Shown here piece after piece: positions 3,066 to 62,319 of a DNA stretch of 64,000 bases. The notes below the pieces were generated by a model. The model did not search any database and was not told the DNA's origin. It saw nothing but the letters and a program-made list of their open reading frames with translations. Source of the DNA: Dictyostelium discoideum (taxonomy: Eukaryota); assembly GCA_000004695.1 (NCBI GenBank), contig CM000150.2, positions 256,001-320,000 of the forward strand, read 5' to 3'. The first letter of the stretch is position 1, and each line of letters starts with the position of its first letter. A program made the translations under genes and the position numbers.

Positions 3066-4046
3066 TTAAGGAATTTCATTTAATAAATTTAAAATTTCAG
3101 TAAAAGAAGGACGTTTTAAAGGATCTTGATGCCAACAAGCTTGAATTAAATGAGATAATTGATAAGGCCAAGCATTTGGAATTGGTGGACGTAATGATTT
3201 TGTAGTGACAGCCAAAGCCAATTGAACGGAATCCAAACCAGAGTAAGGTAATTCACCAGTTCCCAATTCCCAAAGGATGATACCAAATGCATAGACATCA
3301 ACTTTTTCAGTGTAATCCTCACCCATCAATAACTCTGGAGACATCCAAATTGGGGAACCAATGGATTTTGTCATTTCCGTTGATTTACTCTTTAGTTTTG
3401 ATAGACCGAAATCACAAATCTTGACATTCATATGTTCATCCAATAAAAGATTTAAACTCTTGATGTCACGATGAATGACGCCACTAAGATGAAGGTAATT
3501 CATACCTTGAGCGATTTGAATGGCCAATTTCTTGTAGAGTTGCATATTCATTTTAATCTTTTTAGAGTGTAAAGCGTCATACAATGATCCACCAGGTAAA
3601 TATTCAGTGATAAAACATAGATTTGGTGGTGCAGTACATGCTGCCATCAATAATACTATATTTGGATGTCTTAATCTAGATAGGATGGTCAATTCTTTTC
3701 TAAACTCCTCCAATACTTGATTGTTTACATCCTCATTGATTTTAATTTGTTTAATAGCAACTGAACTTCCTCTCCATAATCCTTTATATACAACTCCAAA
3801 TGTTCCTTCTCCAAGTTTACTTGATATCTTTAACTCTGAAAATGAAATTTCAATATCTGAAAAATATTGTTGTTGTTGTGACGGTGGTTCTACCACGCTA
3901 CCACTATTCTTTAATATATTACCTTGATTATTATATTGATTTGGACTATGATTATTTATTAAATGATTATTTTGATTTTGATTATGATTAAATATATTAT
4001 TTTGATTATTATTATTATTATTATTATTGTGATTATTATTGTTGTG

Positions 4047-4145
<99 letters not shown>

Positions 4146-5816
4146 TTGGTTATTATTTTGATTATTAAATTGTTGTATATTATTTAAAATGTTATTTCCT
4201 AGTGGACTATGATTAACTACATTATTATTATTAAATAAACCAAAACTATTATTAAAATTGCCATCCAATGGACTATTATTATTACTTGTATCTTCAAAAT
4301 AAATAAATGGTTGGTGTTGTGGTTGTGGTTGTGGTTGTGGTTGTTGTTGGTATTGTTGTTGTTGTTGTTGATGATGTTGTTGTTGTTGATATTGTTGCTG
4401 TTGTTGATTATTATTTTGATTATTTTGGTTGTTATTTGTTAATTCATCAATTTCAGATAAGAAAAGATGTTGGGACTCAATTGGTGGTGAGGATTGTAGT
4501 TGTGATGATGGTGGTGGTGGTGGTTTGAAAAGATTTTCAAAGGGTATAATATTTAAACCTATATATTGAACAAATTCATGAAAAGGTAAAGTTGTAAGAG
4601 GTAAAAGAGAGGCATCAGCACCAAATAAAGATAATTTTAAAGTTGAAACTCCACCGGTTTTATTATCTTTAACAGAGTTAAAAACATCTATTATATGACA
4701 TGCTTGTTGTGGTGAAAATTTACGAATATTAATATTTGTAGAACTTGCTCCATTTGCCAAACTACGTAAAATTGGTGGTGTACTAGGTATATTAATATTA
4801 TTGGTATTATTATTATTGGTATTATTATTATTATTAATATTATTAAGATTAGTATTATTAATTATTATTGTTGAACCATTATTTGAACCACCTGAACCAC
4901 TTGTACCATTACCACTACTACCTCCACTTCCACTATTACCACCACCACTACCACTATTACCACCACCACTACCACTACCACTATAGACCATTGATTTTGT
5001 ATAGGAATAAGTTTCAATCATTTGTTTAAGTGTTAATGATAATATCATATTTGGTGATTGAACTTGAGGTAAAGCATTTGGATACAATAAACCCAGTGAA
5101 AATAAAAACTGTGAATTAGGTGATGGTGAAATATCTGGATATAGACCTGTGATATATCGTATCAATTGTTGAAATGATTTTAAATAACCTTTACCTTCAT
5201 CCATTTGTGTGAAATGATGATAACAAAAATAAATCTCTTCCCATCCCATATCTTTAAAACTTCCAACACTAACATCTGATAAACTAAATTCATCAAATGA
5301 ACTATTTCTTTGATGATGTCCACGTATAAAATTCATTTTACTTTGTTGTTGTTGTTGCTGTATTTGTTGTTGTTGTTGTTGTTGTATTTGTTGTTGTTGT
5401 ATTTGTTGTTGTTGTATTTGTTGTTGCTGTATTTGTTGCTGTATTTGTTGTTGTTGTTGTTGTTGGTGTTGTATTTGATGTTGTTGTGGCTGTGGTTGAT
5501 TATTATTTTGAATGATTTGAATTTGTTGTGCTTGTTGATGTTGATGATGAGATATATGCTGTATTATATGATTTTGGTTCATGTTTGGTGATAATCCACC
5601 AAAATGTTGTTGATGAATTTGATGTTGTTGGTGTTGAAAGTTACTTATATTTATATTTATTCCATTATTATTATTACCATTGTTATTATTATTATTGTTA
5701 TTATTATTATTATTATTTAATGCATTACCACCAATTGGTGCTATGACAGGACTTGAATTCCCAAAATAAACATTTGGAACTAAATATTGGTTTTGATAGA
5801 ATCCTCCCCCTTTCAT
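3066..5816 (-). CDS. Serine/threonine (TKL-type) protein kinase with a long N/Q/G-rich low-complexity N-terminal region
   Basis: 916-aa ORF. The C-terminal kinase domain carries GEGTFGVVYKG, AIK, HRDIKSLNLL, DFGLS, SPIWMSPE and DVYAFGIILWEL. The N-terminus has poly-N, poly-Q and (GSG)n tracts. Confidence 0.85.
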
Positions 5817-7216: not shown

Positions 7217-9817
7217 TTAAAGATAACCTTCAGATAAAACCAATTTCGTAATAATATCAATAATGATTGAAGAGGAAGTTGAATAAGATGGTTGATCAAT
7301 TTTTTGTTTTAATAAATGATTGAATAAGATTCTGATCTCTTTTAATAATACAATGATTTTACCAGAGGTAGCTTTAAATTTCAGCCATTTATCGAGGGAA
7401 ATGGTTTGATAGGATTTATCGATTTCAATATTACCACCCAAAGAGAATAATAGTAAAGTTAGGGGAGATAGATTTGTAATATGATGAAGGAATAGTTTCG
7501 AAGTTTTAACCTTATCATTGTAGATAATGAAAGGGTAAACCCATTCACCCTCTTTAAAGTTTGTTGATCTTGGATGAATGAAAACTCTTTCCAATGGTTT
7601 TCCAGGACCACAATTTGGAGGTTTAGTGAGTAATAGCAATGATTCCGGAGAGTATTTATTCTTTATAGCACCACTTGCAGTTTGGCTATACTTTGCATCT
7701 GGATAATCGATTCTTGCAATCTTTGGATACATACCAGCACATAATACACTTGTAATGATTTTACTCTTACTTGAATTTGAATTATAAATATAACCAACAA
7801 ATTCATCAATACAATCATTTGAATAATTGTTACCCTTTTGCTGTTGTTGTTGTTGAAGTTTTGCAATTTTCTTTGCAGTTATTGATTGTGGTAAGAAACC
7901 AATCTCTGATAGAATTTCAACAAATTGTAATTTCAAATCTTGAATAGTACGTAGTGTTGGTATTGATAAGTAATTTTCACGACAAAATTGATATTCATTA
8001 CCATCTTGTATTGATTTTCTCCATGAATTATAAGCATTGATAAGAGTTTGATGATCTGATTGATTTGGTGATGAAAATTTATCCATTGGACGTATAGTTT
8101 TATCAGGTGGATTTAAAAATGGTGATTTATAATTTAATGTTGCAGCAATTGTTAAAATTGGATCTAAACATCTAAATATACAACCAAATAATAACATTTT
8201 ACCAATATAAACATCAACTGGTAAACTTGCTAAATGATAACCTAATGGTGTTAATTCTTGTTGCTGTTGTTGATTGATTTTTAAAGCATCAATTGAAATT
8301 AATTCATTAATTGATGATTGAATTTGTTCAGAACTTGGTGGTTCAATTGCACGATTTAAAAAGTCTTGAATGGTTGTATTTTTATTATTTTTTAAGAAAA
8401 GTTTAACATGAAGACAAAGTTGTTGAAGTGAAGTTCTCAATATCTCTGGTGTATCTTGATCTTGAAGTTGTGATTCCATTGATTTAGTGAAAACCTTAAA
8501 ACATAAACCAGAGGAGGTACGACCTGCACGACCAGCTCTTTGACGACATGATGCTTTCGAAGTCCATTCTTCAGACATTACAGAGTTACCAGTGATAGAA
8601 TTAAATGTCATTTGATTGACTCTACCACAATCTACAACGATTTCAACATCTTCAATGGTGATAGAAGTTTCAGCTATATTTGTAGCTATTACAACTTTGA
8701 CCCTACCATTTGGTGCTTTTTCAAATACTTTTTGTTGATCCTTTGGTGATAATGAACTATGTAATGGTACACACCAAATTCTTTGACAAATAGCTTCAGT
8801 AAACGTTGAAATTGGTTTACCTAATCTTGAACATAACTCTAAAATATCCGATAAACCTGGTACAAACACTAATATTGATTTATCTTTTTTTAAAACTCCA
8901 TTAACCAAATGTAAAATCAATGATTCAACAACATCTAAATTAATTCTTTTTTGATCAATACTAATTTTTAATTGATTTAATTTATTATTTAAAATTTCTT
9001 CTTCATCTTCATTTGTATCATTTGTAGTTGTTGTTGTAGTTGTAGTAGTGGTTGTTGTAATTGAATCTTTATAGTTTGGATTATATTTATTAATTAATGG
9101 TAAAACTTCATTAATATAAATATTTTTAACAGGAAAAGTGAAACCAGGAATTGAAAAAATACTATCATCAGTACATTTGAAATAGTTTGCAATTTGTTTA
9201 GCATTTAAAGTTGCAGACATTAAAATGATTTTCAAATCTTTACGTTTTGAAATGATTTCTCGTAAAATGATTAATAAAAAGTCATTATCAGTTGAACGTT
9301 CGTGAACTTCATCAATGATGATATGTGATAGATCAGAGATGTTTGATACATCCAATATTCTTCTTAATAGAATACCGGTGGTACAAAACAATAGTCTGGT
9401 GGATTGCGACCTCTTTGATTCATTTCTAATTTGGTAACCAACCAAACCTCCAATTGAGTTCTCAACAGTACCACAATTCCATTCATAGGAAACTCTCTCT
9501 GCCACACCAATAGCTGAGATTCTTCTAGGTTGTGTACAAACTATATTACACTCTGATCCTTTCTCTTGGGAAATGAATGATTCTAAAATGTATTGAGGAA
9601 TTTGAGTACTCTTACCACAACCAGTCTCTGCTGTAATAACAACGACTTGATTCTCTTGTAAACATTTTAAAAATTCTTTCTTTCTCTTAAAAACTGGTAA
9701 TGATTCTCTCTTTTTAATCACACCTTTATCAACTTTAATTAATCTATCATATTCATTCTTTAATTCTTTATTAATTTTTAATTTTTCTTTTTCATTTAAT
9801 ACTTTTTTATAATTATA

Positions 9818-9874
<57 letters not shown>

Positions 9875-10426
9875 TTGTTGTTTTTGTACTTTATTATTAT
9901 TCTTTAAAGTTTCAATATTATTTGAATTATTATTATTATTATTTGAATTATTCGTATTATTATCAATTATAATTGGAGTATTAAGTGGTTTTAATTTATT
10001 TGATAAAATATTTGAAATATTTTGATCCAACCAAGATATTATATTAAAAATCATTGGATTACCAATTGATGATTGTAATTCATTTAAAATTGAACGAATA
10101 ACTATTTGATTTGTAATTGGTGTTGATTTTGCTGATGAAAAAGTTATAATTGGTAATTGAAATGGATAAGTAATTAATGATGTTGGTAAATAGATATTAC
10201 ATTTAAATGATGATGATGGTGATTGACCATTATAAATAATATGTTGATTATTTGAACTAAATTCAATTTCATTATTCATATAAATCGATTGTAATGCTAA
10301 TATTTCATTTTCAATAATTTCTTTACTTTGTTCTTTAATGTCATCATCATTTGTAAATTGATTATTATTGTTATTATTTTCATTTAATTTAAATAAATTT
10401 AAATAAACTTTAAAGAATACTATTAA

Positions 10427-13010: not shown

Positions 13011-13689
13011 TTGTTAGTTTTGTCCACTACTTGAAGCCTCAATATTATCATTTTTTAATAAATATCAAATTATATTTTTATTATGGCCAGATTCTTTTTT
13101 ATTATTTTATGAAAACTTAATAATAAAATGTTATTTATTATTTATTAATAATTGATATTAGTTTGTTATAAATCTTAATTTTATTTATCCAGCAATTTTT
13201 TTTTTTTTTTTTTTTTTTTTATTCTTTACTTGATAAGAAAGGTATGTTTCATTTGAAAAAACAATAATATCTTTTTTAAAAATAAAAAAAATAATCATTA
13301 ATCAAATAACTAACTTTATATTTATTTTAAATTATTTATACATAATATCTTTACAAAATACTTTTAAAAAAAGAAATTAAAAATAAAAATGCAATTAATA
13401 TTTTTTATTTATTCTTTTTTAAAAATTATTTAAAAATGATTCTATGTATATAATTAAAATTTATCTCTTCAATATAAAAATAATCCAATACAAATTATTT
13501 TTATTTATCTCTAATAATATTATTAAATACGATAAAAAAGAATGACTGTATTTAATCCACAAACAATGACCCTCCATTTTATTTAGGCATTTAATTAGAT
13601 AAACAAAAATATTTAAAAAAAAAAAAAAAAAAATTAGATAGATATTTTCTAAGATAAGATAATCTCAAATAATGATAAATGATTTATTA

Positions 13690-30361: not shown

Positions 30362-31251
30362 TTAAAATGGTTGTTGTAATTCATCTTGAAAGAATTTAAT
30401 TGAACCTTCAAAAACTGTTACAGAAGGACAACTAACAAAAACTTTATCATCTTCTTCTCTCCATTCAACTTCTAAAATACCACCATCCATTTGAACATTT
30501 GCTTTTCTATTATTTTTACCACGTAAAACCCCACTAACCAAAGCGGCAGCAGCACCAGTTCCACAAGAATTTGTTACACCAATACCCCGTTGCCAAACTC
30601 TAACACGTAGTGAATCTCTAGTTTTCACTTGTACGAATTCAACATTTGTCTTTTGTGGAAATATTGGATGTGATTCAATAACTTTACCATAGTAATCCAT
30701 TGGAAATTCATCAACATTCTCCAAATGTAATACACAATGAGGATTACCCATTGAAACTAATGTTGAATTAATAAAATGACCACCACATTGAATTACTTTA
30801 CTATATTCATTATATGATGAATTGGTTGATAATAATACTCTACCAAATGAATTTGATAAATCATTATTATTATTAATATTAATAATATTATTATTTAATT
30901 TAAAGATTGGACATTGTTGAAAAATATTTGAGTCGATTTGAAATTGATTTATATTTGGATGTTGAAAATTACCACCACTACTACCACCATGATGATCAGA
31001 TGTTTTCAAAACTAATGGATTACCTAAACTAACTTTACTCCAAAGTGTTTTTGCATTATTTAATGGATGTTGAGGAATGGTCATACATTGTTGTATACCT
31101 GCTATCGTATAAATACTAATACTTCTAGATTCAAATAAAAGATAAGGTGTTTGATTTAATGTTTTTAATCTATTTCTTGAAAAAAATGGTTTTAAATCTT
31201 CATTATGATGTGGTTCTTGATTATTATTATTATTATTATTATTATTATTTA

Positions 31252-31339
<88 letters not shown>

Positions 31340-31906
31340 TTGTTCAATTTCAATATTATTATTTTGATTATTTTGATTGTTTTGATTGTTTTGACTGTTT
31401 GTTCGATAAGATTTTAAATTATAATCTACAATATATTTGCAAACGCAAGAAACACCAGTTGTACAATTTTCAGCAATACTACCATCAGAATTAAAAATTA
31501 AAAGTTGAAAGTCAGTTTCATTCAATTTATCATTTGGAGGTGGTGTTAATACCAGTGTATTATCAGCACCAACGCCTTGTTCTCTATCACATAATCTTTG
31601 AGCAATGTTTTGTAATACTTGAATTGATGGTCTAAATGATGAATTATTATATTCTACCCTAAGATTATCAATATGAAATATAATAAAATCTTGACCACGT
31701 ACATGCATCTTACAAAATTTTAATATGACCGATGATAACAATAATTCATTTTGTTGTTGTTGTTGTTGATATTGTTGTTCTTGTTCTTGTTGTTTTTGAT
31801 AAAAAATTTGTCGATTCAAATTATTTTGTTGTTTTTGTTGTTGTTGTGTTGGAATTTGTGATGATGATAAAAATGAATTATGAAATGGGCATTTAGTTAT
31901 ATCCAT
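30362..31906 (-). CDS. Diaminopimelate epimerase (DapF)-fold protein with both catalytic cysteines, interrupted by poly-N/poly-Q insertions
   Basis: KFCKMHVRGQDFIIFH matches E. coli DapF FSKMHGLGNDFMVVD. LCDREQGVGADNTLVLTPPPN...FQLLIFNSDGSIAENCTTGVSCVCKYI matches LADRHLGVGFDQLLVVEPP...[42 protein letters not shown]...PIFPQKTNVEFVQVKTRDSLRVRVWQRGIGVTNSCGTGAAAA...GGILEVEW matches [16 protein letters not shown]...[42 protein letters not shown]...GGRLDIAW. Both active-site Cys positions are kept. Confidence 0.8.
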
Positions 31907-44607: not shown

Positions 44608-47232
44608 TTAATCCCAACCATCATCCCAACCATCAGATTTGGAAGCAGTTACAATTGTTTTCTTTTCAACAGTTTTTTTAATATTTGAAGTGGTTGTAGA
44701 AGGAACTTGAATTTCATCATTACCCCAACCATCATCGTCACCCCAACCATCTGAATTATTATTTTTATTGTTATTATTTTTATTCACTATATTACTTGAA
44801 GAAGAAGAAGTATCTTCTTCATCAAAAGAGTATTTTGGTTTATTTTTAGATACTAAAGACATTGGTTTGTTATCTAATTTATTTGATGTTGAAGAAGAAG
44901 ATGATGATGTTGAAGATGGTTTTGGAGTGAGTCTTGGTAAATCTTCTTTATATTTACTATAATCTTCTTCTTGATAGTCTTCATCGTCATCATCATCATC
45001 ATCATTGTCTTCAACCTTATATTTTGAAGATTTTGATGGTGTATTAGTAGTTGTTTGTTTCTTTGGTGGTTCTTGATAATCATTATCACCCCAACCATCA
45101 TGTATAACTTTAGTTGGTTGTTTATTTTGTAATGATTTATTATTTTGATTATTATTTTGATTATTATTTTGATTATTATTTTGATTATTATTTTGATTAT
45201 TATTTTGATTAATTGGTGGAGATTTATAACCATTATTATTATTTTGGTTAATTGGTGGAGTATTAGTATTATTATTATTATTTGTTGCAGTAATTGGAGA
45301 ATTTTCACCACTATAAAGTTTTTTAGTAATTCCAACAGCCCAACCTAACATTGAGTCTTGTGAATTTTGATTTGGATCATTTGGATTTGTATTTAAAGTT
45401 GAACCATTTTGTTGTTGTTGTTGTGGTGATGATGGTAAAATTGAATCAACATTCTTTTCAATTTTTTGTAAAAACATATTTATAGCGGTGAAAGCAGAAG
45501 TTCTAATTGATTTTTCAGGTGAGATTAGCATTCTTGAAACCTCTGGTATGACACGAGTTGCTAATTCCTCTAAACTATAGTTTGATATTGTAAACATGAA
45601 AGCTTGAATAGCAGCATTTTGAGAAGGAACGAAAGGATCCTTCAAGGCAGTTGAAAAGGCGGGTATTAAAACTCGTTTCTTTGTTGCCTCATTCATGTAT
45701 TCGGTTATTCTACCCAAACAAATGGTAGTGTTACATCTGACACCAGCTTGTTGATCTTTTTGAAGTGCAGCGAAATATTTCAAAAGAATGATCATTGTTT
45801 TCTCTTGTAACTTTGGTGCAAATAGTAACATTGATTTAATGGTTAACTCTTTCAAAGTTGGATTATCATTGAAACCATTGACAACATGTGGAAATATTTG
45901 ATCATTAATAGTGGCCTCATTCAAATGTTGGATATAATGTTCTAAATTCTCCAATAGATTAATACGCAATGCTCTATCATCACATGCAAACCATTTAACA
46001 ACACTTGGTACAATTCTACTATTATACTCCTCTGTTGATAAATTTGATCCAATCTTTAACAAAGTACTTAATAATCTTGGATTGACTGGTCCCAAATCAA
46101 ATGCTGTAACTAAATGTGGTAAAATTTTAAATTTACAAATATTAATTGGTATTTTTTCAATATGTTGATCTAATTTTCTAAATAAATAAAAAATAAAAAT
46201 ATATTAGTATTTTCATGAAAAAAATAATAACTTTTATTAATAAAATAATAATTACTTAAAAAATTGTTCTTTTTCAAAAGTATCTTTTAATGTTATATTT
46301 TCAAGGAAAACTAAAGTTTCAACAAAAACATTTTGAAAATATGGTGATTCTAAAAACTTTTGAGGATTTAATCTTGATTCAGTTTTAACAGCAAATGATT
46401 TTTGATAGGCTTGATGTAATTGTTTTGGTATTTGATCTAAATTCTTTATATCTTCTGCCTTTGTCATTGTACCATTATAACATTCATACATTAAACAACC
46501 TAACATCCAAGAATCGATACTATACGATGGTGATTGTTGAATTTGTTGCCATTGTGATTTCATTATCTCTGGTGATTTATATTTATTTGGTATTAAATCA
46601 TTATGATTCCTTAATATACTATTATTTATATCCTTTACATCCGATACGAAATCCAATCCACCAATTTGCCAATCACCACCTTTATTAACAAATATACTAC
46701 TACTTTGAATATTACCATGTGTTAAATTACATTTATTATTTAAAAATGATAATCCTTCCTGAAAAAAAAAAAAAAAAAAAATTAAGTTAAAATATAAGTT
46801 AATAAATAAACATAATATGCTTATATGTTTATATGTTTATAATTGAATATACATTACAGTTACTTGATATAAACCCCATGAAATTGCATTTTCAAAATTT
46901 CTAATATCTTCTAAAAGTTCATCTAATAGTTGAATAGGTTCTGTAACAATGTAAATATTAGTTTCAGTTTCTAAACCATCTAAATACTTTAAAACATTTG
47001 GATGACGAGTAGTTTTTGCACGTTTGAAACCATTCTTTGCAACTTCTAATTTTGATGGGTTCTTTTTAATATCGAAACTAAATATTGATACTGCACTTCC
47101 ATCTTCTTTCTTTGTACCTGAATGTAATGTCCAAATTGATTTCCCAACATATCCTGTCACAATCGGTCCTATATTATATGGGAATGATTGTGATGCTGTT
47201 AAGTTTTGTCCCATTAATTTAAATATATACAT
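44608..47232 (-). CDS. SCY1-like protein (SCYL1/NTKL-type pseudokinase with HEAT repeats), 3 exons (47232..46858, 46758..46256, 46177..44608)
   Basis: Exon 1 is MYIFKLMGQNL...SIWTLHSGTKKEDGSAVSIFSFD...RHPNVLKYLDGLETE...AISWGLYQVT. Exon 2 (EGLSFLNNKCNLTHGNIQSSSIFVNKGGDWQIGGLDFVSD...QFF) parallels human SCYL1 [46 protein letters not shown]...EKQKFFQEL. Exon 3 holds the HEAT region and an N/Q-rich C-terminus with a repeated DGWGDD motif. Donors are gtaatg and gtaatt. Confidence 0.85.
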
Positions 47233-47270
47233 TTTTTTTTATTTGAAATTGTTTGATCGATTTTAACAAT

Positions 47271-47306
<36 letters not shown>

Positions 47307-47381
47307 AATGTAATAAATAAAAAAAAAAGGATGGAGCAAAATTAAAATGTATTAAAAAAACACCTTGCAAAATTTTTGAAA

Positions 47382-47439
<58 letters not shown>

Positions 47440-47781
47440 CAATTAACCTGTTATTTATATTGAAATTTATTTTTAATTAAAAAAAATTTATAATTGTTTA
47501 AATTAATTTTTGCCTGATTTATTACTAATTTATTATTTTATTATTATCATTTATTTATTTCTTTGAAAACTTAGGATTGGAAACTTAGTTTCAGAATTAT
47601 TCTTCACCAAATATTAAATAAAAACCATTACAAAAAAAAATAAAAAATTAAAATAAAAAATCCTTTTTAATGATTTTTAGATTATTATTATTTGTTTTTT
47701 TTTTTTTTTTAATTAAAAATTCACTTTTTTATTTTTTTTTTTTTTATTTTTTTTATTATTTTTATAATTTCATTACGATTT

Positions 47782-48036
47782 TTGTTTTTCAAAAATTATT
47801 ACACAAAGATGAACGACAACAATGACAACAACAACAATAACAAAAATATAGATAATGTGGATGATGATAATGATGATAATGATAAAGGAAAATATAAAGG
47901 AAATGAATTTTCAATATTAGAAAAAAGTTTAAATAAATTATTAAATAACGTAGAGACTTTTAAAAATTATAATAATCAAATGATTGAATCAAATAATAAA
48001 ACAGTGGATTTTGTTCATTCAAGATTCAATAAATAA
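47782..48036 (+). CDS. Hypothetical small acidic protein (about 75-84 aa); the likely start is the ATG at 47809
   Basis: ORF MNDNNDNNNNNKNIDNVDDDNDDNDKGKYKGNEFSILEKSLNKLLNNVETFKNYNNQMIESNNKTVDFVHSRFNK. It is divergently oriented to SCYL1, consistent with a shared promoter. No homolog recognised. Confidence 0.35.
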   Translation: MFFKNYYTKMNDNNDNNNNNKNIDNVDDDNDDNDKGKYKGNEFSILEKSLNKLLNNVETFKNYNNQMIESNNKTVDFVHSRFNK

Positions 48037-48448
48037 TTTTTTTTTTTTTTTCATTTACTTGATTTTTATTAATTTTAAGAATATAAAAATAAAAATAAAA
48101 ATAAAAATAAAAATAAAAATAGAAATAGAAATAAAATTTATTTTTAAAAGTAATAAAGTAAGTTTCATTTGTTAATAATTTTATTTTTATTTTTTATTTT
48201 TTCATTCTTCCTAAAAATTCCAAAAATATTAATGTTAATTCTTAATTTGTAATAATTGTAGAAAGTTTGGTTCAGAAGAGGGGTGTAATAATAAAAAATT
48301 GAAATTTATAATCAATCAATCGATCAAAACATTTCATTATCAAATAAATAATCAATTTCACACCCATACACACACTTACACACACATGAATATAATACAA
48401 ATTAATAAATGGTTACTTTAATTATATTTTTAATTAGATTATTTTTAA

Positions 48449-48745
48449 TTAGATTATTTTATTGAGATTATATAAATTTTTAATTTTATAAAATATGTTT
48501 AAATCACCAACATTTTCCGGTAACTGATAGTTTGAATCATTTAAATAATTTGATAATATAGATCTTGTAATTTTCCCACCCATTGGTATTGGTAGTTCAA
48601 GAATAATTATAATTTTACTTAAAAAAGTAGATGGATTAAAATCATTTGAAATTATAAAATTAATTTCATTTTTTAATTGATCTATTTCAATATGATGATC
48701 ACCAGCATTTTTTAAAACCAATAATGCAACTAATTGATTTAAATT
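48449..48745 (-). pseudogene. Truncated copy of the C-terminal about 95 codons of the adjacent acetyl-CoA-synthetase-like genes
   Basis: Translation ...QLVALLVLKNAGDHHIEIDQLKNEINFIISNDFNPSTFLSKIIIILELPIPMGGKITRSILSNYLNDSNYQLPENVGDLNIFYKIKNLYNLNKII is near-identical to the C-terminus of the 51708..53784 gene. Similarity ends abruptly upstream and there are no N-terminal exons. Confidence 0.7.
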
Positions 48746-48918
48746 GGATGTAAAAATTTCAGCATCAAAGTGAAAAGTAATTTTATGGGGCTGGTCGCTT
48801 CTTTTTTTTTCACATTAAATACAAAATTCCAAAAAATTGATTATTATATATAGATTAATAAAAGGTTACTTTAATTTTATTTTTTTATTTTTAATTAAAT
48901 TATTTTATTAAGATATTA

Positions 48919-50988
48919 TTATTGTTTACATAAATTCTTGATGTTATAAAATAATTTCAAATCACCAATATTTTCAGGTAATTGATAATTTGAATTATTT
49001 ATAAATTTTGATATGACAGATCTTATAATTTTCCCATTAATTGATATTGGTAATTCAGGAATAATTATAATTTTACTTAAAGAAGTAGATGGATTAAAAT
49101 CATTTGAAATTATTAAATTAATTTCATTTTTTAGATGATTCATATCAATATGATGATGATCATCAGCATTTTTTAAAACCAATAATGCAACTAATTGATT
49201 TAAATTTTCAAGAGCAAATGAACAACATTCTAAAACTAATGGATGTTTTAAAATTGAACTTTCAATTTTATTTAATATAATTGATTTTCCATCATTTAAA
49301 GTTAATTGATCTTCTATTCTTGAAATTACACTAAAATATCCATTATTATCTTTAAATCCTAAATCACCAGAATTATAATAACCTTTATATTTGCTAAACA
49401 ATTGTTTAAATTTTTCATCTTTTTTATAAAATGTAGTTGCAAAACTTGGTGGCATTGGTAATTTAAATGAAATTTCACCAATTTCATTTTCACTTAATTC
49501 TTTACCATCTACAGGTGATAGTATTACTGGTTTTATGAAAACCGCAGGTACACCACAAGCAGAATATGGGATATTGGGATGACCATAGCCTAAAATATAT
49601 GTTATTCCAATTTCAGTTTGACCATATCCTCTTGAACATTTTACTTTAATTTTATTTTCAATGTAATCTGATAATGATGGATCAGTAGGTTCCCCTCCAA
49701 AACATAATACCCTTAAATTTGATAAATTATATTTTGATTTCAAATTCTCAGCATTAGGATCAGTATTAATTTGGCGTTTAATTTTTCTTGGACATACAAA
49801 AGATATTGAAATTTTATGTTTTTCCAATGTATTCCAAAAGTTTGTTTCACCAATCTCACCTAAAACAATTGTTTGACCATTTGATAAATATCCATATAGA
49901 AAACCATGAAATAATAAACCACCAATTTTATAATGAGAATGGAATCTTAGAACTAGGTTTTTTATAATCATTGTACTATAATTGTATTTTAAACAAACTA
50001 TTGAACCATTACTTCTAACAATTGATTTTGCAATTCCTGTTGTTCCACTTGTATGAAGAATATATAATGGGTGATTTGAATCTACTGGTACATATTCATA
50101 AAATGGTTTCTGTTGATTTTCTTTGATTTTATTAATTTCATTATCCCAATTTAAACAATTTGGAATTGGTTTAATGTTTTGAATGAATTTTAAATCAGAT
50201 TCATTAAAATTTCTATCATGATTTCTAAAATCAGTAATTACATGATTTGGTTTAAATTTTGATATTTCAATTGCATTTTTTAAATTTGTTGTAAACTCTA
50301 CAACTGTATCATTAATAATAGTAAAATTTGATGATAATATTAATTTAGGTGTTATTTCTTCAATTATACCGACCAATGTATTTATACTATAGCTATCATA
50401 TATTACACAATGAGTTGCACCAATACGAGCGCATGATAACATTGCAATAATTGGTTCTAATGTTGGTGCCATACAAATTAAAACATTGTCATCTTTTGTA
50501 ATATTTAAATTTAAAAGTACTCTTGAAAATTCACATACTTTTTCAAATAGTTGATTATAAGTCAATTCTATTGTTTTTTTTAAATATGGACATTCATAAA
50601 TTATTGCCACTTGATCCCTTTTTAATGGATTATTAACATTTATATCCAAAACATTATAACATGAATTAAATTTACCTCCTTGGAACCAATCAGGATAAAT
50701 TTCATCACCACTGTAGACTTTATCATAAATTTTATCCCTTTTTTTTTTTTTTATTACATTTTATAATTATTTATATATTTATAAAAATATTTTAAAAATT
50801 ATAATAAAAAAAATTAATATTACATATATTAAAAAAACTATCACGAAATTATTTAAACAATTTAAAAAAAAAGTAATAGTTTACCAATAAATATTTTTTT
50901 TTGCAACTTCATCCCAAAATTCATTTGGTTTATTATTTGCATAATTACTATCATTTTTATAATTAAATGGGTCACTTAATTTATACAT
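48919..50988 (-). CDS. Acetyl-CoA synthetase-like AMP-binding enzyme (acyl/acetate-CoA ligase family), copy A, 2 exons (50988..50885 and 50737..48919)
   Basis: Exon 1 is MYKLSDPFNYKNDSNYANNKPNEFWDEVAKKNIYW, ending at a gtaaac donor. Exon 2 begins DKIYDKVYSGDEIYPDWFQGGKFNSCYNVLDINVNNPLKRDQVAIIYE..., which fits the ACS N-terminus (FWGE...W...Y.DG.LN...CLDRH). The AMP-binding motifs are YTSGTTGIAKS and GYGQTE. The splice phase was verified. Confidence 0.8.
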
Positions 50989-51061
50989 ATATGAATTATT
51001 TATTTGTAAGCAAATATAATATTAATATTAATAATTAAAAAAAAAAAAAAAGATTAAATAA

Positions 51062-51117
<56 letters not shown>

Positions 51118-51299
51118 AAAATAAAAAAAAACCACCTTTGTTTTTGTATTTTAAAAGTGTTGTGGGATGATAAAAATTTAAACAGTTTATTATGTTTATG
51201 TTAAGAAAAAATCATCTTGGGTGTTAAAGTTTAAAAAAAAATATAGAATATTGATTTGATAAATTTATTTTGTTGGTTCAAATAAAATTTGTTTATATT

Positions 51300-51530
51300 T
51301 TGGTGTGTGGGTGTGCGAGTGTTCAAATTATAATAAAACTACACCATACTAACATTTTAATTTGATTAAAAAATTTAGTTGTCTTTAGTCTTTTTTTATT
51401 AAAGTATCATTCAGACCTAATTATAATTTATATTTAATAAAAAATAATAAAATTAATATTTTTGTATAATAATATAAAAATAATTATGATTTACTTAAAA
51501 ATATGAAGATTTAAAAAATATATTTGATAT
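51300..51530. repeat. Flank repeat copy 1 of the ACS-like tandem duplication unit (non-coding)
   Basis: gttcaaattataataaaactacaccatactaacattttaatttgattaaaaaatttagttgtctttagtctttttttattaaagtatcattcagacc... recurs with about 85% identity at 54340..54545. Confidence 0.7.
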
Positions 51531-51707
51531 TTGAAATAGTAGATAAAAAAAATAATTTTAGTTTTCTTAAATTTAAAAAAATAAAAATAAAAAAATAAAA
51601 AAAATAAAAATAAAAAATTAATCACCCATGAATATAATATAAATTAATAAAATGTTACTTTAATTGTATTTTTATTTTTAATTTAATTAAATTATTTTAT
51701 TGAGAGA

Positions 51708-53602
51708 TTATTGTTTAAATAAATTTTTAATTTTATAAAATATGTTTAAATCACCAACATTTTCAGGTAATTGATAGTTTGAATCATTTAAATAATTTGA
51801 TAATATAGATCTTGTAATTTTCCCACCCATTGATATTGGTAATTCAGGAATAATTATAATTTTACTTAAAAATGTAGATGGATTAAAATCATTTGAAATT
51901 ATAAAATTAATTTCATTATTTAATTGGTTCATATCAATATGATGATGATCATCAGCATTTTTTAAAACCAATAAAGCAACCAATTGATTTAATTTTTCAA
52001 AACCAAATGAACAACATTCTAAAACTAATGGATGTTTTAAAATTGAATCTTCAATTTTATTTAAAATAATTGATCTTCCATCACTAAAATTTAATTGATC
52101 TTCTAATCTTGAAACCACACTAAAACATCCGTTCTTATCTTTAAATCCTAAATCACCAGAATTATAATAACCTTTATATTTGCTAAACAATTGTTTGAAT
52201 CTATCATCATTTTTATAAAATGTAGCTGCAAAACTTGGTGGCATTGGTAATTTAAATGAAACTTCACCAATTTCATTCTCATTTAATTCTTTACCATCTA
52301 CAGGTGATAATATTACTGGTTTTATGAAAACTGCAGGTAGACCACAAGCAGAATATGGGATTTTGATATGGCCATAGCCTAAAATTAATGTTATTCCACT
52401 TTCACTTTGACCATATCCTCTTGAACATTTTACTCCAATTTTATTTTCAATGTATTCTGAAATTGGTTCTTCAGTAACTTCCCCTCCAAAACATAGCACT
52501 TTTAAATTTGATAAATTAAAATTTGATTTTAAATTCTCAGCATTAGGATCATATTTAATAAGGTTTCTAATTGTTTTAGGCCATGCAAAAGACATTGAAA
52601 TTTTATGTTTTTCCAATGTATTCCAAAATTTTGTTACACCACTCTCACTTAAAACAAATGTTTGACCAAATGATAAAAATCCATATAGAAAACTGTGAAA
52701 TGTTAAACCACCAACTTTATGATGTGCAAGGAATCTGAGAACTACATCTTTTATCATCATTGCACTATAATGATATTTTAAACAAACTAGTGAACTATTA
52801 CTTCTAACAATTGATTTTGGTTTTGCTGTTGTTCCACTTGTATAAATAATATATAATGGATGATTTGAATCTACTGGTACATATTCATAAAATGGTTTCT
52901 GTTGATTTTCTTTGATTTTATTAATTTCACTATCCCAATTTAAAGAATTTGGAATTGGTTTAATACTTTCAATTAAATTAAAATCAGATTCTTTAAAAGT
53001 TGAATCATAACTTCTAAAATGAATAATTACATGATTTGGTTTAAATTTTGATATTTCAATTGCATTTTTTAAATTTGTTGGTAACTCTACGATTGTATCA
53101 TTGACAATAGTAAAACTTGATGATAATATTAGTTTAGGTGTAATTGATTCAATTCTATCAACCAATGTATTTACACCATAATTATCATATATTACACAAT
53201 GAGTTGCACCAATACGAGCGCATGATAACATTGCAATAATTGGTTCTAATGTTGTGGCCATATAAATTAAAACATTATCATCTTTTGTAATATTTAAATT
53301 TAAAAGTACTCTTGAAAATTCACATACTTTTTCAAATAGTTGATTATAAGTTAATTCAATTGTTTTATTTAAATATGGACATTCATAAATTATTGCCACT
53401 TGATCCCTTTTTAATGGATTATTAACATTTATATCCAAAACATTAAAACATGAATTGAATTTACCACCTTGGAACCAATCAGGATAAATTTCATCACCAC
53501 TGTAGACTTTATCATAAATTTTATCCCTTTTTTTAAAATATATATGAAGTGTAAAAAAAAAAAAGGTAAAATTAGCATGTATTAAAAAATTATCCAAAAC
53601 AA

Positions 53603-53636
<34 letters not shown>

Positions 53637-53784
53637 TAAAAAGAAAAAAAAAAATAAAAAAAATAAAGGTTAAGATTTACCAATAAATATATTTCTTTGC
53701 AACTTCATCCCAAAATTCATTTGGTTTATCATTTGCAAAATTACTATCATTTTCATAATTAAATGGGTCACTTAATATATACAT
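51708..53784 (-). CDS. Acetyl-CoA synthetase-like AMP-binding enzyme, copy B (tandem paralog of copy A), 2 exons (53784..53681 and 53526..51708)
   Basis: Exon 1 is MYILSDPFNYENDSNFANDKPNEFWDEVAKKYIYW, ending at a gtaaat donor. Exon 2 begins DKIYDKVYSGDEIYPDWFQGGKFNSCFNVLDINVNNPLKRDQ... and is about 85% identical to copy A across 600 aa. Motifs are YTSGTTAKPKS and GYGQSE. Confidence 0.8.
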
Positions 53785-54339
53785 TTTATTGAATTATTTA
53801 TTTATAATAAAAACAATAATAATAAAAAGTTTTAATAATTAAAATAAAAACTTTTGTTTGTAAATAAAAAAAAAAAAAAAAAAAAAAAACACCCAATGTT
53901 TTTGTTAAAAGTTGATTTTAAAATGCATAAAAAAAATTGATTTGTAATAATAAAAAAAAAAAAAATTAATTTGAGATAATAAAAAAAAAAATTAATTTGT
54001 AGTAATAAAAAAAAAAATTAATTTGTAATAATAAAAAAAAAAAAAATTAACTTTTGAAATTTTCTTTTTTTTTTTAACACGTTTAAGGGGCTTCCCAAAA
54101 CAAAAAATCAAATTAATTAAATTTTTTTAAAAAATGATATTATTAAATTAGGGTTGTGAAGAAAAAAATTTTAATTGGTGTAAAATATTTCAATTTAAAC
54201 AAAGGTTTCCTTGTTTTTTAAGTAAATATTAATTATTAATTTACTAATTGATTTTTATTTTTTTTTTTTTTTATTTTTTTTTTTAATTAAACATAGAAAT
54301 GATTTTTTTGGTTTTTAAAAATAAATAAAAATTTGTATA

Positions 54340-54545
54340 TATTTGGGTGTTCAAACAATAATAAAAAACCAATCACACCATATAAACATTTTGATCTGGT
54401 TAAAAAATTTAGTTTCTTTTAGTCTTTTTTATGAAAGTAACATTCAGACTTCATTAATTATATTTAATAAAAAAATAAAATTAAATTTTATTTTTGGATA
54501 ATCTAAAAATAAATATAATTTACAAAAATGAAGATCTAAAAATTA
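54340..54545. repeat. Flank repeat copy 2 of the ACS-like duplication unit
   Basis: gttcaaacaataataaaaaaccaatcacaccatataaacattttgatctggttaaaaaatttagtttcttttagtcttttttatgaaagtaacattcagac... matches 51300..51530. Confidence 0.7.
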
Positions 54546-54568
54546 AAATTTTAACCAATCCCAAAGAG

Positions 54569-54600
<32 letters not shown>

Positions 54601-55254
54601 AGCAGTTGATTATTTGGTTTTGAGAATGATAAATTAGATTTTGATATTTGAAATAATTGGTAAAAAAAAAAAAAAAAAAAATTAATTTGACCATTCTTAA
54701 ATTTTGAAAAAAAAAAACAAAAATTAAAAAAATAAAACTATTTTTTTTTTTTTCAAAATTAATTACCTCTGAAAACCACAAATTATTTCATATTTTAAAA
54801 AATTATTCGGGGATGAATATAAAATTTTAGTTAATTTTTTCCAGAAATTTAATAATTTTTTATCTAAAATCCTCTTTATTTTCCAATACAAAAGATTTAA
54901 ATTGATATATATAGAAAAAAAAATAAAAAAAATAATTAAAAAATAATTAAAAAATCCAAAAAAAAAAAAAAAATAAACGAAATGGGAAATTAAGATCTTT
55001 AAAGGGGGTTCGTTCAAAAATAAAAAAAAAATAAAAAAAAAATAAAAAAAAATAAAAAAAAAAAAATAAAAAAATAAAAAAAAAATAAAAAATTAATATC
55101 ATTCCGGGATTACCCTTTGATTCTTTTATTCCACCTCACTTTTATTTATCTTCAATATTAAAATTTAAATTTTCTTTTTTTTTTTTTTTAAATACTAAAC
55201 ACATATAAAAAAAACTATAATATAAATATTACATATATTACATATAAATATACA

Positions 55255-56670
<1,416 letters not shown>

Positions 56671-57811: not shown

Positions 57812-59489
57812 GGTTGTGGTTGTTGTACAGATTGTAATGATTGATCATTCATTAAATTAATACTTGAAGTACTATTATTATTTAAATTTGATGAACTATT
57901 ATTATTACTATTATTATTACTATTATTATTACTACTACTATCAATTGATTGAATATCATCAAGAGTATTTGTTTCATTTTCAGAATCTTCATAAGAGGAA
58001 TCTGAATTTTTATCAAAATCTAAATCCAATGATGGTCTAAAATTAGTTGGTAATTCTAAATCACCTGGAATAATGTATGGACTATTATTATAACTACTAT
58101 TATTGGCACTATTGTTACAATCATCTTCAAATGAGTGTTCAACTTGTTGTTTTGATTTCTTTTTCTTTTCTTTTTTACTCTTTACTTTTTTACCTATATC
58201 TTTACCTTTTTCACCTAAATTTGACATTGCTTTTTTAACACTCTTATAAATTGAATTACCACTTGATTTCAATGATCTTTTACCATCATCTATATTAAAT
58301 TGTGGTGGTACTTGTTGTTGTGATTGATCATCAGTAGTAGTAGTGGCAGTAGTGGTATTGGTTGTTGTTGTTGTAACTGATTGTAAATAAGGTGATACAT
58401 TTGGTGATGTTGTTGAAGAGTTTGTTGATTGTTGTTGTTGTTGTTGTTGATTACCTTCTAATGATGATGATGATGAAATATTCATTGTTAATTCACCAGT
58501 TAATGAATTGAATTTTGGTGATGATGATTTATCTTTAATTGATGATGAACCAGATCTTAATTTTCTTGATAATTTCTCAAATGAAAATGATGATGATGAA
58601 CCATTTTCTGAACCTTCATTATCATTGTCACCACCGAGATAACGTGGTGTATTTGGTAATGAAAGTACTTCAGCACCACTATTTGGATTACTATCTCCAC
58701 CATCGGTAATTCCATTACTTCCTGTTAATGAATTTTTTCTTTCAGTTTCTGCTGATTTTAAATCTGAAAATAATTTTTTAAAACTCATTGATTTTGTATT
58801 AATTTTATGTGGTACTGGTGATTTTTGAATATCAGATGATGATGATGTTTGTAATGGTGATGCTGGTTGTTGTGTTTGTTGTGTTTGTTGTTGTGATTGT
58901 TGTTGTGATTGTGGCGATTGTGGTGGTGGTTGGAAAATAGCTTCACTACCATCTGAATTTATAGAATCTGTTGATTTTCTATACTGTTTAAACTTTTCAT
59001 TAAAAAACTTTTTAAATCTTAAATTACCACTAGCACCACTACCACCATTAGCATTACCATGTGGTACACCCATAATACTATCACTTAAACCACCAGCACG
59101 AGCATTCATTTCTTTTTCTTCTTTTAAATCATTTGTTTTACTCCACATCTCATCCAATACACAACCTAATGTCTTTTGAAAAGATGCAATTGATGATGGA
59201 TTTGTCCATTTTATTCTTGATAAAACTGCACGAGTTTTATGTAAAACTGGTATATAATCCTCTTGACATGTTCCTTCTCTTTCCCAAATTTCATCAAATA
59301 ATTCAAATGAAATACAAAATAACTCTTCAAACCAATCATCTTGATCAAATATAATTTCATATAAATTTTCATCTTCTATATACAATTCAAAAATTAAATT
59401 TGTTAATGTAAAACCAACTCTTGAAAATGAATAATATGAATCATCTTCATTTTCAACATTATTATTATTATTATTTTCAACATTGTCAC

Positions 59490-59565
<76 letters not shown>

Positions 59566-60757
59566 TTCATCATTATTATTACTATTATTATTATTATTTA
59601 TATTAATTTCTTTAAATTTTTTAATTTGAGCTTTTAAAATTTCATCATAAATTCTAAAATAACGTGCACAAAAATAAATCATATTTCTAATACCTAATAA
59701 ACCAGTTGATTGTAATTCTAAATGTAAATCATCAGTTTCAAAACCAAGTAATTTCATTTTCTCTTCATTTGTAGTTGGTGAATCACCACCATTATTTGGA
59801 AATGACATTTTACATAATCTATTTAAAAACGATAAAACATTTTGTCTATCTAAAAATATTGATGTTTGTTTTGATGCTTTTATACCATTAATTTTATGTT
59901 TTTGATAATGTAATAATTCTAATCTAACATTTGGATTAACACTTTTTACAAATGTCTAAATAAACAATAATAAAAAATAATTAATAATAAATAATTAATA
60001 ATTAATAATAATTAAATAGTAAAAAAAGATTAATCTATACCTTTATAACTTCATTTACACCTTGAGAACTTAAAACCTGTCTATATCTTTCAAAATCAAA
60101 ATAGGATGGAGCAGAACTTAACATATGATTTATAAATGATAAACAACCTGCAACTAATTTATCATGATCTTCTGCAGTATTATTATTATTATTATTATTA
60201 TTATTGCTATTATTATTAGGATTGGTTGAAATTAAATTTGGAGAAGAAATTGGTTTTTCAAGTATATGAATATAAAAATTCTTTTTATATTGGTGTGAAA
60301 TTGCATTAATTGCTTTATCCAAAATATTAAACATTAAAGATGGTTTACCAGTAATATTATTATTATTTCCTTGTAAAATTGGTGAAGATTGAGTCGAAGA
60401 GGATGGTGTTGTACTTGATGATGATGATGGTGATGATGATTGATTAATTGATGTTGACGAATTGTTATGAATTGTTGATGGATATGGAGATGGTTGAAAT
60501 GGAATTTCAACAGATGGATTAATTGGTGAGAATGTATTGGTTGTTAACATTTGAGTTAACAAATTAAATAATGATGCTTGTCTATTACAATATACAAATG
60601 ATATAACGGTTTGAGTTGATAATGTCAATAATTCGGTATTTACATTTTTATTTTCAGATTCAATAACTTCATTTTGTTGTTGAATTACATTCGATAATGA
60701 TAAACTTGGTACACTTGATGTTAAATCAATCATTGTCAATGTATCTTGAGTTTCCAT
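57115..60757 (-). CDS. ELMO-domain-containing protein with extensive poly-N/Q/S low complexity, 2 exons (60757..60041 and 59955..57115)
   Basis: Exon 1 is a 239-codon ORF ending ...ERYRQVLSSQGVNEVIK at a gtatag donor. Exon 2 begins TFVKSVNPNVRLELLHYQKHK... and continues in frame into the 897-aa ORF. That ORF contains an ELMO-like block (FTLTNLIFELYIEDENLYEIIFDQDDWFEELFCISFELFDEIWEREGTCQEDYIPVLHKTRAVLSRIKW). The rest of exon 2 is S/N/Q-rich. The splice phase was verified. Confidence 0.7.
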
Positions 60758-61568: not shown

Positions 61569-61667
<99 letters not shown>

Positions 61668-61668
61668 T
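61560..61668. repeat. (ATT)n microsatellite, about 35 units
   Basis: Direct reading: attattattatt... Confidence 0.9.
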
Positions 61669-62319
61669 TATTTTTATTTTATTTTTTTTAAAAAAATTTG
61701 AAAAAAAGAACATTAAATTATAGTTGGGTGTCCAAAAACTATAATAATAATAATATATATATTTATTATCTATTTGTTTTTTTTCTTATTTCTATGTAAA
61801 AAAATTGAATAAAACAAGTTTACTGACATATAATTATTTATAGTTTTCGGACATTTTTTTTAGAGTTTTTTATTTTTTAATTTCAATTTTTTTTTTTATT
61901 ATTTTATTTTTAAAAGTTACTTCTTTCAATTGGAATTAGCTTTTAAACTATATATCTAATTTTTATTAATTTAAATATTATCAAAAATTATTATATTTTT
62001 TTAAGGTGGATATTTGAAAATTTATTATCATTCTTTATGGGATTTTTTTGATCAAAATAAAATCTCCACAACCCATGAAAACTTTCTTTTTTTTATGATT
62101 TTTTTTTTGTTTTTTTTTTTGTTTTTTTTGTGTTTTTTTTTTTTGTTTTTTTTTTTTTTTTGATTTTTACTACAGCCATAAGAAAATAAAAAAAAGGAAA
62201 GAGAAGAAATATTATTTTGGAAAATTTTTAAAAATAAATATTTATTTAATGAAATATTTAAAAAGAGAAGTTTTCGTCTTGGTTGTTATTCATATTATGA
62301 ATGTAATAAGGTTGATTGG

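Follow-up and report, generated by a model that had tools for sequence, protein, structure and literature searches.

We analysed a 64,000-nucleotide stretch of Dictyostelium discoideum DNA (contig CM000150.2 of assembly GCA_000004695.1, positions 256,001 to 320,000 of the forward strand; hereafter the window, in whose positions coordinates are given unless another locus is named). The window has a G+C content of ~22% and carries on its minus strand a tandem array of the asl family, consisting of two complete genes, aslM and aslN, together with a 3'-terminal remnant of a third one, here called fragment C. An earlier reading made from the sequence alone (the sequence-only reading) had described the two genes as copy B and copy A, respectively. 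The array is composed as follows:

51708..53784, minus strand: aslM (copy B); exon 1 53784..53681, intron 53680..53527, exon 2 53526..51708 including the stop codon; 640 aa.
48919..50988, minus strand: aslN (copy A); exon 1 50988..50885, intron 50884..50738, exon 2 50737..48919 including the stop codon; 640 aa.
48381..48745, minus strand: fragment C, 365 bp, comprising the last ~92 codons and ~70 bp of 3' flank of the third copy.

The spliced translation of aslM was 100% identical to that of DDB_G0267544 (XP_647115.1), and the spliced translation of aslN matched DDB_G0268272 (XP_647114.2) exactly, both from chromosome 1 of D. discoideum AX4. The coordinates and two-exon structures that the sequence-only reading had proposed were correct, both genes splicing to 640-aa products. 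The names aslM and aslN are the dictyBase asl names as they appear in the PMC6198379 supplement. Arranged head to tail, the two genes each have a 104-nt exon 1 and an intron (154 nt in aslM and 147 nt in aslN) located at an identical codon position and in the same phase, and the open reading frames (ORFs) and splice sites of both are intact. The two are 90.6% identical in their coding sequences (CDS) and 81.1% identical as proteins, somewhat less than the ~85% amino-acid identity that had been estimated. Besides aslM, aslN and fragment C, tblastn returned no further asl family member in the window.

Similarity between the two gene units extends well beyond the coding regions and involves the following segments:

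51633..53889, minus strand: duplicated block of unit B, made up of the intron-containing gene flanked by ~105 bp on the 5' side and ~75 bp on the 3' side.
48845..51084, minus strand: duplicated block of unit A, collinear at 90.5% with gene 2 of the syntenic locus L002 described below.
54347..54542, minus strand: flank F upstream of aslM, non-coding, 81.3% identical over 208 nt to the other copy of F (E~1e-37).
51319..51517, minus strand: flank F upstream of aslN, non-coding, in the aslM-aslN intergenic region.
53907..54044, no strand assigned: minisatellite with a 26-bp AT-rich unit in ~5 copies, upstream of aslM only (found with Tandem Repeats Finder).

When the window was compared with itself by blastn, the two blocks aligned at 87.7% identity over 2273 nt (E=0), and the two copies of flank F formed a separate 208-nt match. 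The postulated tandem head-to-tail duplication, with units on the same strand and homology running across the intron, the untranslated regions and the upstream flank, was thereby borne out, and so was the duplicated non-coding flank of ~200 bp. The minisatellite explains part of the length difference between units B and A. As a candidate RNA gene, flank F was rejected, there being no Rfam match at E<=1 in 47000-56500 and no tRNA in the window; the best interpretation of F is a conserved upstream region or promoter.

The array was compared with the corresponding loci of other assemblies. The window from 58000 to 45000 (13 kb) is collinear with GCA_054883475.1, an independent assembly of D. discoideum, at 99.49% identity with 6 mismatches, and the layout of aslM, aslN and the fragment is the same there; thus, the array is not an assembly artefact, and copy number, a question raised by the sequence-only reading, does not differ between these two strains. 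In two further assemblies labelled D. discoideum, GCA_054859385.1 (L001) and GCA_054859355.1 (L002), the syntenic locus carries three tandem copies (g1, g2 and g3). By gene ID in the PMC6198379 supplement, the AX4 array has as neighbours scy1 (DDB_G0267540) and a thiamine pyrophosphokinase gene (DDB_G0267546), in agreement with the neighbours found in the syntenic loci. The single-copy flanks of L001 and L002 are only 87-94% identical to those of AX4, with synonymous divergence (dS) between orthologues of 0.10-0.12, and these two assemblies therefore represent divergent lineages. As a side observation, assemblies departing from AX4 by 6-13% in the single-copy flanks (L001 and L002) and by 0.5% (GCA_054883475.1) all bear the same species label, which suggests cryptic species or loosely applied species labels.

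In a bootstrapped neighbour-joining tree of the gene sequences, aslM grouped with both g1 genes (200/200) and aslN with g2 of L002 (200/200), and aslM and aslN were never sisters (0/200). Thus, the triplication predates the splits between the AX4, L001 and L002 lineages. On the other side, dS is 0.128 between aslM and aslN and ~0.5 against D. citrinum and D. dimigraforme, which places the triplication after the split from those two species. The tandem duplication stands in outline, and the term 'recent' that had been attached to it applies only loosely, the event being older than lineages now separated by a dS of ~0.10-0.12. One copy does not follow this scheme: gene 2 of L001 (10001-12109) groups with the gene-3 pair (200/200) and not with the other gene-2 orthologue, suggesting gene conversion, replacement or a more complex history in the L001 lineage.

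The copy of flank F that precedes aslM is conserved in front of gene 1 in L001 (89%) and L002 (85%), as well as upstream of the single gene in a fourth lineage (L004), and the g1-g2 intergenic regions of L001 and L002 are without a copy of F. Within AX4, the two copies of F share 81% identity, less than the 89% found between the aslM copy and the orthologous F of L001. For this reason, F probably belonged to the ancestral unit and would have been lost later between g1 and g2 in the other lineage.

The third copy is disrupted wherever it was found, each time by a different lesion. Gene 3 of L001 (12673-14723) has three frameshifts; gene 3 of L002 contains an internal tandem duplication of 109 bp (~13040-13150); and gene 3 of AX4 has a 5' deletion that left fragment C behind. 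L004 (5833-6877) has one frameshifted copy and an inverted partial copy. Copy number thus varies from three in L001 and L002 (gene 3 disrupted), through two plus a stump in AX4 and GCA_054883475.1, to one plus the inverted partial copy in L004. Gene 3 was disabled independently, by a different lesion in each lineage, which is birth-and-death turnover. An ancestor of the D. discoideum species complex thus carried a head-to-tail series of three copies, bordered by the thiamine-pyrophosphokinase gene and scy1. The series would have been produced by tandem duplication or unequal crossing-over, each unit originally with its upstream flank of ~200 bp. Gene 3 was later disabled separately in the individual lineages, and in the AX4 lineage a deletion of ~2.2 kb took the promoter and the first ~545 codons of gene 3. 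Both intact genes are already annotated and named and gene-family birth and death is ordinary here, and the locus has little importance beyond annotation hygiene; it is a compact example of the process in a lineage-specific enzyme family, in which a third copy was killed in three ways in three lineages.

The 3' end of the AX4 array, on which this account of gene 3 depends, contains three further segments:

48746..48863, minus strand: junction of 118 bp between the 3' flank of aslN and fragment C.
47633..48380, minus strand: retained downstream flank of the former gene 3, toward scy1, inside the 87% alignment with L002.
48730..48929, minus strand: hypothetical intron of 200 nt, read from the sequence, with donor T/GTAAAC in codon 638 and acceptor TTAG/TTGC.

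By blastn, positions 48381-48742 of fragment C are 89.8% identical to 51623-51992 at the 3' end of aslM and 84.5% identical to the 3' end of aslN, and tblastn matched the fragment to query residues 547-638 at 90%, so that the truncated third copy recognised in the sequence-only reading is present. It starts ~100 bp past the end of the aslN 3' homology rather than one full unit downstream. Together with its downstream flank (48745..47633), it is collinear at 87% with positions 14286..15405 of L002, which comprise the 3' end of gene 3 and its flank. The 118-bp junction takes the place of ~2.2 kb of L002, namely the g2-g3 intergenic DNA and the 5' ~1.85 kb of gene 3. A blastn search for the source of the junction found no match in the window other than the junction itself and none in any fetched locus, and local alignment against L001 and L002 gave low-complexity matches only. 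We also noted that the junction holds an unusually G+C-rich patch (GAAGCGACCAGCCCC). The gene DDB_G0267542, which by its ID lies between scy1 and aslM, has no description and shows nearly zero expression in all samples of PMC6198379; it may correspond to fragment C or to a small spurious ORF.

A public protein model gives fragment C a different role. This 730-aa model (P0125, which is ACTFIT_008308; MetaClust UPI00004E3B5C) consists of aslN residues 1-637, a single F and the translation of fragment C, and would make the fragment a third, 3'-terminal exon of aslN, yielding a protein in which the last ~90 residues, including motif A10, are repeated. The model splices codon 638 of aslN to the fragment by way of the hypothetical 200-nt intron, for which a GTAAAC donor and a TTAG acceptor exist, and the fragment has an open frame of ~95 codons (48729/48721..48449), its original stop codon having been lost through a 7-bp deletion. 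Moreover, the ratio of non-synonymous to synonymous divergence (omega) of the fragment is only 0.25-0.30 against every relative. This value derives from 15 substitutions (8 non-synonymous and 7 synonymous), and with so few changes a low omega is expected under recent truncation; it fits such a truncation and is no proof of current function. In addition, RefSeq currently lists the AX4 protein of aslN with 640 aa, under an accession in its second version (XP_647114.2), the donor codon TGT of aslN is TTT in aslM, so that the donor is not a family feature, and at the position of fragment C both L001 and L002 carry a separate gene 3 with its own start, independently disrupted. We therefore regard a terminal exon as unlikely. 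The circulating 730-aa model is most likely an artefact of the open pseudogene frame, in which a live gene has been joined to a pseudogene stump.

As to the encoded proteins, the Pfam gathering cut-offs are 27 bits for ACAS_N (PF16177), 29.9 for AMP-binding (PF00501) and 24.5 for AMP-binding_C (PF13193). The AMP-binding domain scored 164.4 bits in aslM and 161.5 in aslN, and ACAS_N scored 47.7 and 54.3 bits in the two proteins, in keeping with the acetyl-CoA synthetase (ACS)-type N-terminus that had been recognised from the sequence. Both proteins align full length, through A10, to solved ACS and PrpE structures, the best solved relatives being the PrpE-type 5gxd and yeast ACS1 (E~1e-67), which settles the fold. 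Residues are numbered here as in Escherichia coli Acs; in the Acs sequence used, the published key residues fall at their published numbers, and a search with it gave Salmonella enterica Acs (2p2f and 1pg3) as the top match (1464 bits, residues 1-652 to 1-652). The adenylation residues T264, S265, G266, T268, E417, D500, R515 and K609 are all retained in aslM and aslN. On our reading, the two would thus be active acyl-adenylate-forming enzymes of the ANL superfamily, descended from its Acs/PrpE short-chain branch. They would couple ATP to a carboxylic acid to give an acyl-adenylate, as the conserved residues suggest, and would next transfer the acyl moiety to a thiol, an acceptor that by default is assumed to be most likely coenzyme A (CoA).

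Both genes appear to be maintained. The dN/dS comparison that the sequence-only reading had envisaged gave an omega of 0.33-0.36 for aslM against g1 (p 2e-5 to 2e-7 against omega=1) and 0.38 for aslN against g2 of L002 (p 1e-7 against omega=1), and each gene is clearly under purifying selection relative to its orthologues. According to the PMC6198379 supplement, aslM reaches 1-6 transcripts per million (TPM) in cup, stalk and spore cells and 0.02-0.37 TPM in vegetative cells, and aslN 1.1-8.4 TPM and ~0.02 TPM, respectively. Both genes are thus weakly transcribed in the cell types of the fruiting body and hardly at all during growth. One or both genes might alternatively be decaying duplicates or catalytically dead pseudo-enzymes. 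Such decay would be in line with the omega between aslM and aslN, which is not significantly below 1 overall and high in two segments of the proteins (given below), with the low expression, with the loss of gene 3 in three lineages and with several degenerate motifs (GIAKS/AKPKS in A3, a one-residue insertion in A8, D517E in the hinge and PISMGGK/PISINGK in A10). Nevertheless, it is very unlikely given that the ORFs and splice sites are intact, that omega between orthologues is 0.33-0.38 (p<=2e-5), that every adenylation residue is kept and that both genes are transcribed in development.

The differences between aslM and aslN are unevenly distributed along the proteins. Omega between the two is 0.15 in residues 36-140, 0.95 in residues 141-240 and 1.38 in residues 301-440, the last value not being significantly above 1. 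When polarised with outgroups, 60 differences are derived in aslN and 37 in aslM, with 24 ambiguous. Gene conversion between the two genes was considered for the first ~300 nt of exon 2, which are 96-97% identical, and was rejected, as dS there (0.105) equals that of the rest of the gene and dN alone is reduced; this segment reflects strong constraint and not recent homogenisation. The sequence-only reading had inferred sub-functionalisation from the A3 motif and from N-glycosylation-like residues, and neither basis held. The AKPKS ending reported for the A3 motif of aslM is correct, whereas the motif of aslN reads HTSGTTGIAKS and not YTSGTTGIAKS, and the positions concerned (G/A, K/I and P/A/S) vary throughout the family and in bacterial PrpE. 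N-x-S/T sequons are expected in an Asn-rich protein, and inspection by eye found no hydrophobic N-terminal stretch in either protein, no signal-peptide predictor having been run. Differences in the pocket and tunnel inside the fast-evolving segment 301-440, namely T in aslM and L in aslN at 311, and Trp and Cys at the position aligned with Ala357 of Acs, would be a sounder reason to suspect that the two have diverged in function.

The label 'putative acetyl-CoA synthetase' carried by both genes is probably wrong on the substrate. Against the AcsA profile (TIGR02188), the proteins scored 294 and 277 bits with a cut-off of 724.95, and against the PrpE profiles (TIGR02316 and NF007815) 215-235 and 248-264 bits with cut-offs of 827.4 and 955; scores so far below the thresholds indicate that aslM and aslN are equivalogs of neither. 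Outside the dictyostelids, the closest sequences carry the annotation propionyl-CoA synthetase and are ~30% identical. In every dictyostelid family member compared, W413 is replaced by Tyr, W414 by Gly and V386 by Gly, and in aslM and aslN the Acs motif WWQTETG has become GYGQ[ST]E. The Trp of the Acs pocket sets the acyl range, and Gly occupies this position in medium-chain synthetases (PMC10455477). With the acyl pocket opened by W414 to Gly and V386 to Gly, acetate or propionate would be an unlikely substrate, and an acid larger than either is more likely. Eight bacterial PrpE sequences were compared at the same positions: all eight have Trp at both pocket positions and Arg at 526, and seven have Arg at 584, the corresponding residues of aslM and aslN being Y/G, S and S. 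The tail following A10 (Y-Q-L-P-E-N-[VI]-G-D) is in a register similar, and not identical, to that of PrpE (Y-x-[IVM]-P-x-T-I-[DE]-D). That the two are simply isozymes of acetyl-CoA synthetase or propionyl-CoA synthetase, as the label has it, is most improbable, because the presence of ACAS_N, AcsA and PrpE as the best NCBIfam models, PrpE and ACS as the best PDB matches and the PrpE-like tail (Y-x-L-P-x-N-V-G-D) are countered by profile scores at a fraction of the cut-offs, by Gly at both Trp414 and Val386 and by the loss of R526 and R584, which bacterial PrpE keeps.

With AcsA (TIGR02188; S. enterica 1pg4/2p2f and yeast 1ry2), aslM and aslN have in common the fold, the two-step ANL chemistry, ACAS_N and the adenylation residues, but Trp414 of the acetate pocket is Gly, a medium-chain signature according to PMC10455477. 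With PrpE/ACSS3 (TIGR02316 and NF007815; 5gxd), they share the domains ACAS_N, AMP-binding and AMP-binding_C (the last above its cut-off in aslN only) and the likeness of the post-A10 tail at ~30% identity over the full length, but the WW motif, V/A386, R526, R584 and F-G-G163-165 are changed; these changes, together with the scores below the cut-offs, make propionate an unlikely substrate. Medium-chain synthetases (MacsMa of Methanosarcina and ACSM2A) resemble asl proteins in having Gly at Acs Trp414 and a generic GYGxTE motif at A5, and the Lys that MacsMa carries at the R526 position is also found in chromosome-2 asl members. However, they are without ACAS_N, and their similarity to aslM and aslN is far weaker (E 1e-11 to 1e-20 vs 1e-67), so that this likeness concerns a possible way of working and not family membership.

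Within the family, the match list and the tree place aslM and aslN in a large expansion of group-4 dictyostelids that forms a separate clade, a possibility raised in the sequence-only reading. The name aslN implies at least 14 named asl members. On chromosome 2 of D. discoideum, asl arrays hold ~10 copies, with partial copies, within ~47 kb. The relatives in D. purpureum are far more distant (32-40% identity). The dictyBase asl family, which includes the arrays around DDB_G0273211-DDB_G0273365 on chromosome 2 and aslH (DDB_G0267506), has the same domains and the same W414G, V386G and G164D changes as aslM and aslN. Its chromosome-2 loci (L007 and L008) are likewise tandem arrays mixed with partial or pseudogene copies. 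Yet identity to the chromosome-2 members is only 52-57%, and aslM and aslN constitute a separate, faster-evolving subclade, distinguished by Trp309 to Gly in A4, PKTK to PISM/PISI in A10, K526 to S and the one-residue insertion in A8. The whole asl family looks mislabelled as acetyl-CoA synthetases, an only mildly novel angle.

Taken together, the locus is very probably a tandem array of the asl family in which aslM and aslN are intact and selectively maintained, the third gene persists as a 3' stump, and the two products are ANL enzymes acting on a larger acid and expressed at low levels in the fruiting body. Several observations weigh against this reading. Sequence alone does not place fragment C, which grouped with the gene-3 copies in 64 and with aslM in 33 of 200 neighbour-joining bootstraps, and its assignment to gene 3 rests on position. 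Omega between aslM and aslN is 0.73 overall and not significantly below 1 (p=0.09). AMP-binding_C scored 28.2 bits in aslN, above its cut-off, and 22.8 in aslM, just under it. In Acs, R191, R526, R584 and F163-G164-G165 serve CoA binding or the thioester-forming state (PMC10455477). In aslM and aslN, V/I, S and S take the place of the three Arg residues and Y-D-N/S that of the tripeptide. The ANL superfamily as a whole shows little conservation of its CoA sites, and the missing Acs-type contacts are therefore only a hint. With coding sequences ~90% identical, multi-mapping reads may blur the TPM values of the two genes. Finally, enzymology for any asl protein is absent from the searchable literature: text searches for the genes and the family returned no relevant paper, the genes appearing only in supplementary tables, and a search of the PMC7078664 supplement found nothing.

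Several observations concern the surroundings of related genes. In D. citrinum, D. dimigraforme and D. firmibasis (L003, 1-12035; L005, 1-11994; L006, 1-12216), the genes most closely related to aslM and aslN are arranged head to head with a type I polyketide synthase (PKS) gene encoding ~2500 aa. The PKS of D. firmibasis has an asl-like gene on both sides, and a PAP2 gene is located just downstream in D. citrinum and D. firmibasis. On chromosome 1 of D. discoideum, ~19 gene IDs from aslM and aslN, aslH (DDB_G0267506) adjoins a PAP2 gene (DDB_G0267500) and may correspond in position to the copies linked to PKS and PAP2 genes in the sister species. In the PMC6198379 supplement, aslH is strongly stalk-enriched, at 84-146 TPM in stalk cells and ~0 in vegetative cells; the values of aslA-1 seem to climb across the columns of a second table of that supplement. 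A PKS link in D. discoideum itself was considered and rejected, the window having no PKS-sized ORF. Furthermore, the AX4-type orthologues of the neighbouring PKS lie in an array of PKS genes only, where no asl gene occurs within 10 kb, and the chromosome-2 asl arrays have no PKS neighbour. The adjacency of asl and PKS genes, confined to the sister species, hints at a connection and is a lead, not evidence of function.

A wider interpretation of the family is possible, if doubtful. According to it, asl would be a dictyostelid-specific, fast-turnover family of acyl-adenylate-forming enzymes that are not short-chain CoA ligases, with an enlarged pocket and an Acs-unlike CoA site, which act in late development on larger acids for secondary metabolism and possibly feed a PKS, aslM and aslN having diverged in the region of the pantetheine tunnel and pocket. 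More speculatively, the lost Acs-type CoA contacts and the adjacency to PKS genes in the sister species might be leads to the loading of carrier proteins in the manner of fatty acyl-AMP ligases (FAALs), the PKS-loading enzymes in which a specific insertion blocks the CoA-dependent alternation of domains. If the asl family does serve secondary metabolism in the fruiting body, it would provide useful access to the polyketide chemistry of Dictyostelium, most of which is unexplored; at this stage it is only a lead.

Among the remaining features of the window, a long ATT/AAT run is present at 56003-56105 in the region of the thiamine-pyrophosphokinase gene, where one frame reads as poly-Ile. Near-identical runs occur at ~3960-4190, 9760-9975, 31220-31395, 59458-59605 and 61569-61690. 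These runs are typical simple repeats of Dictyostelium and not shared mobile DNA.

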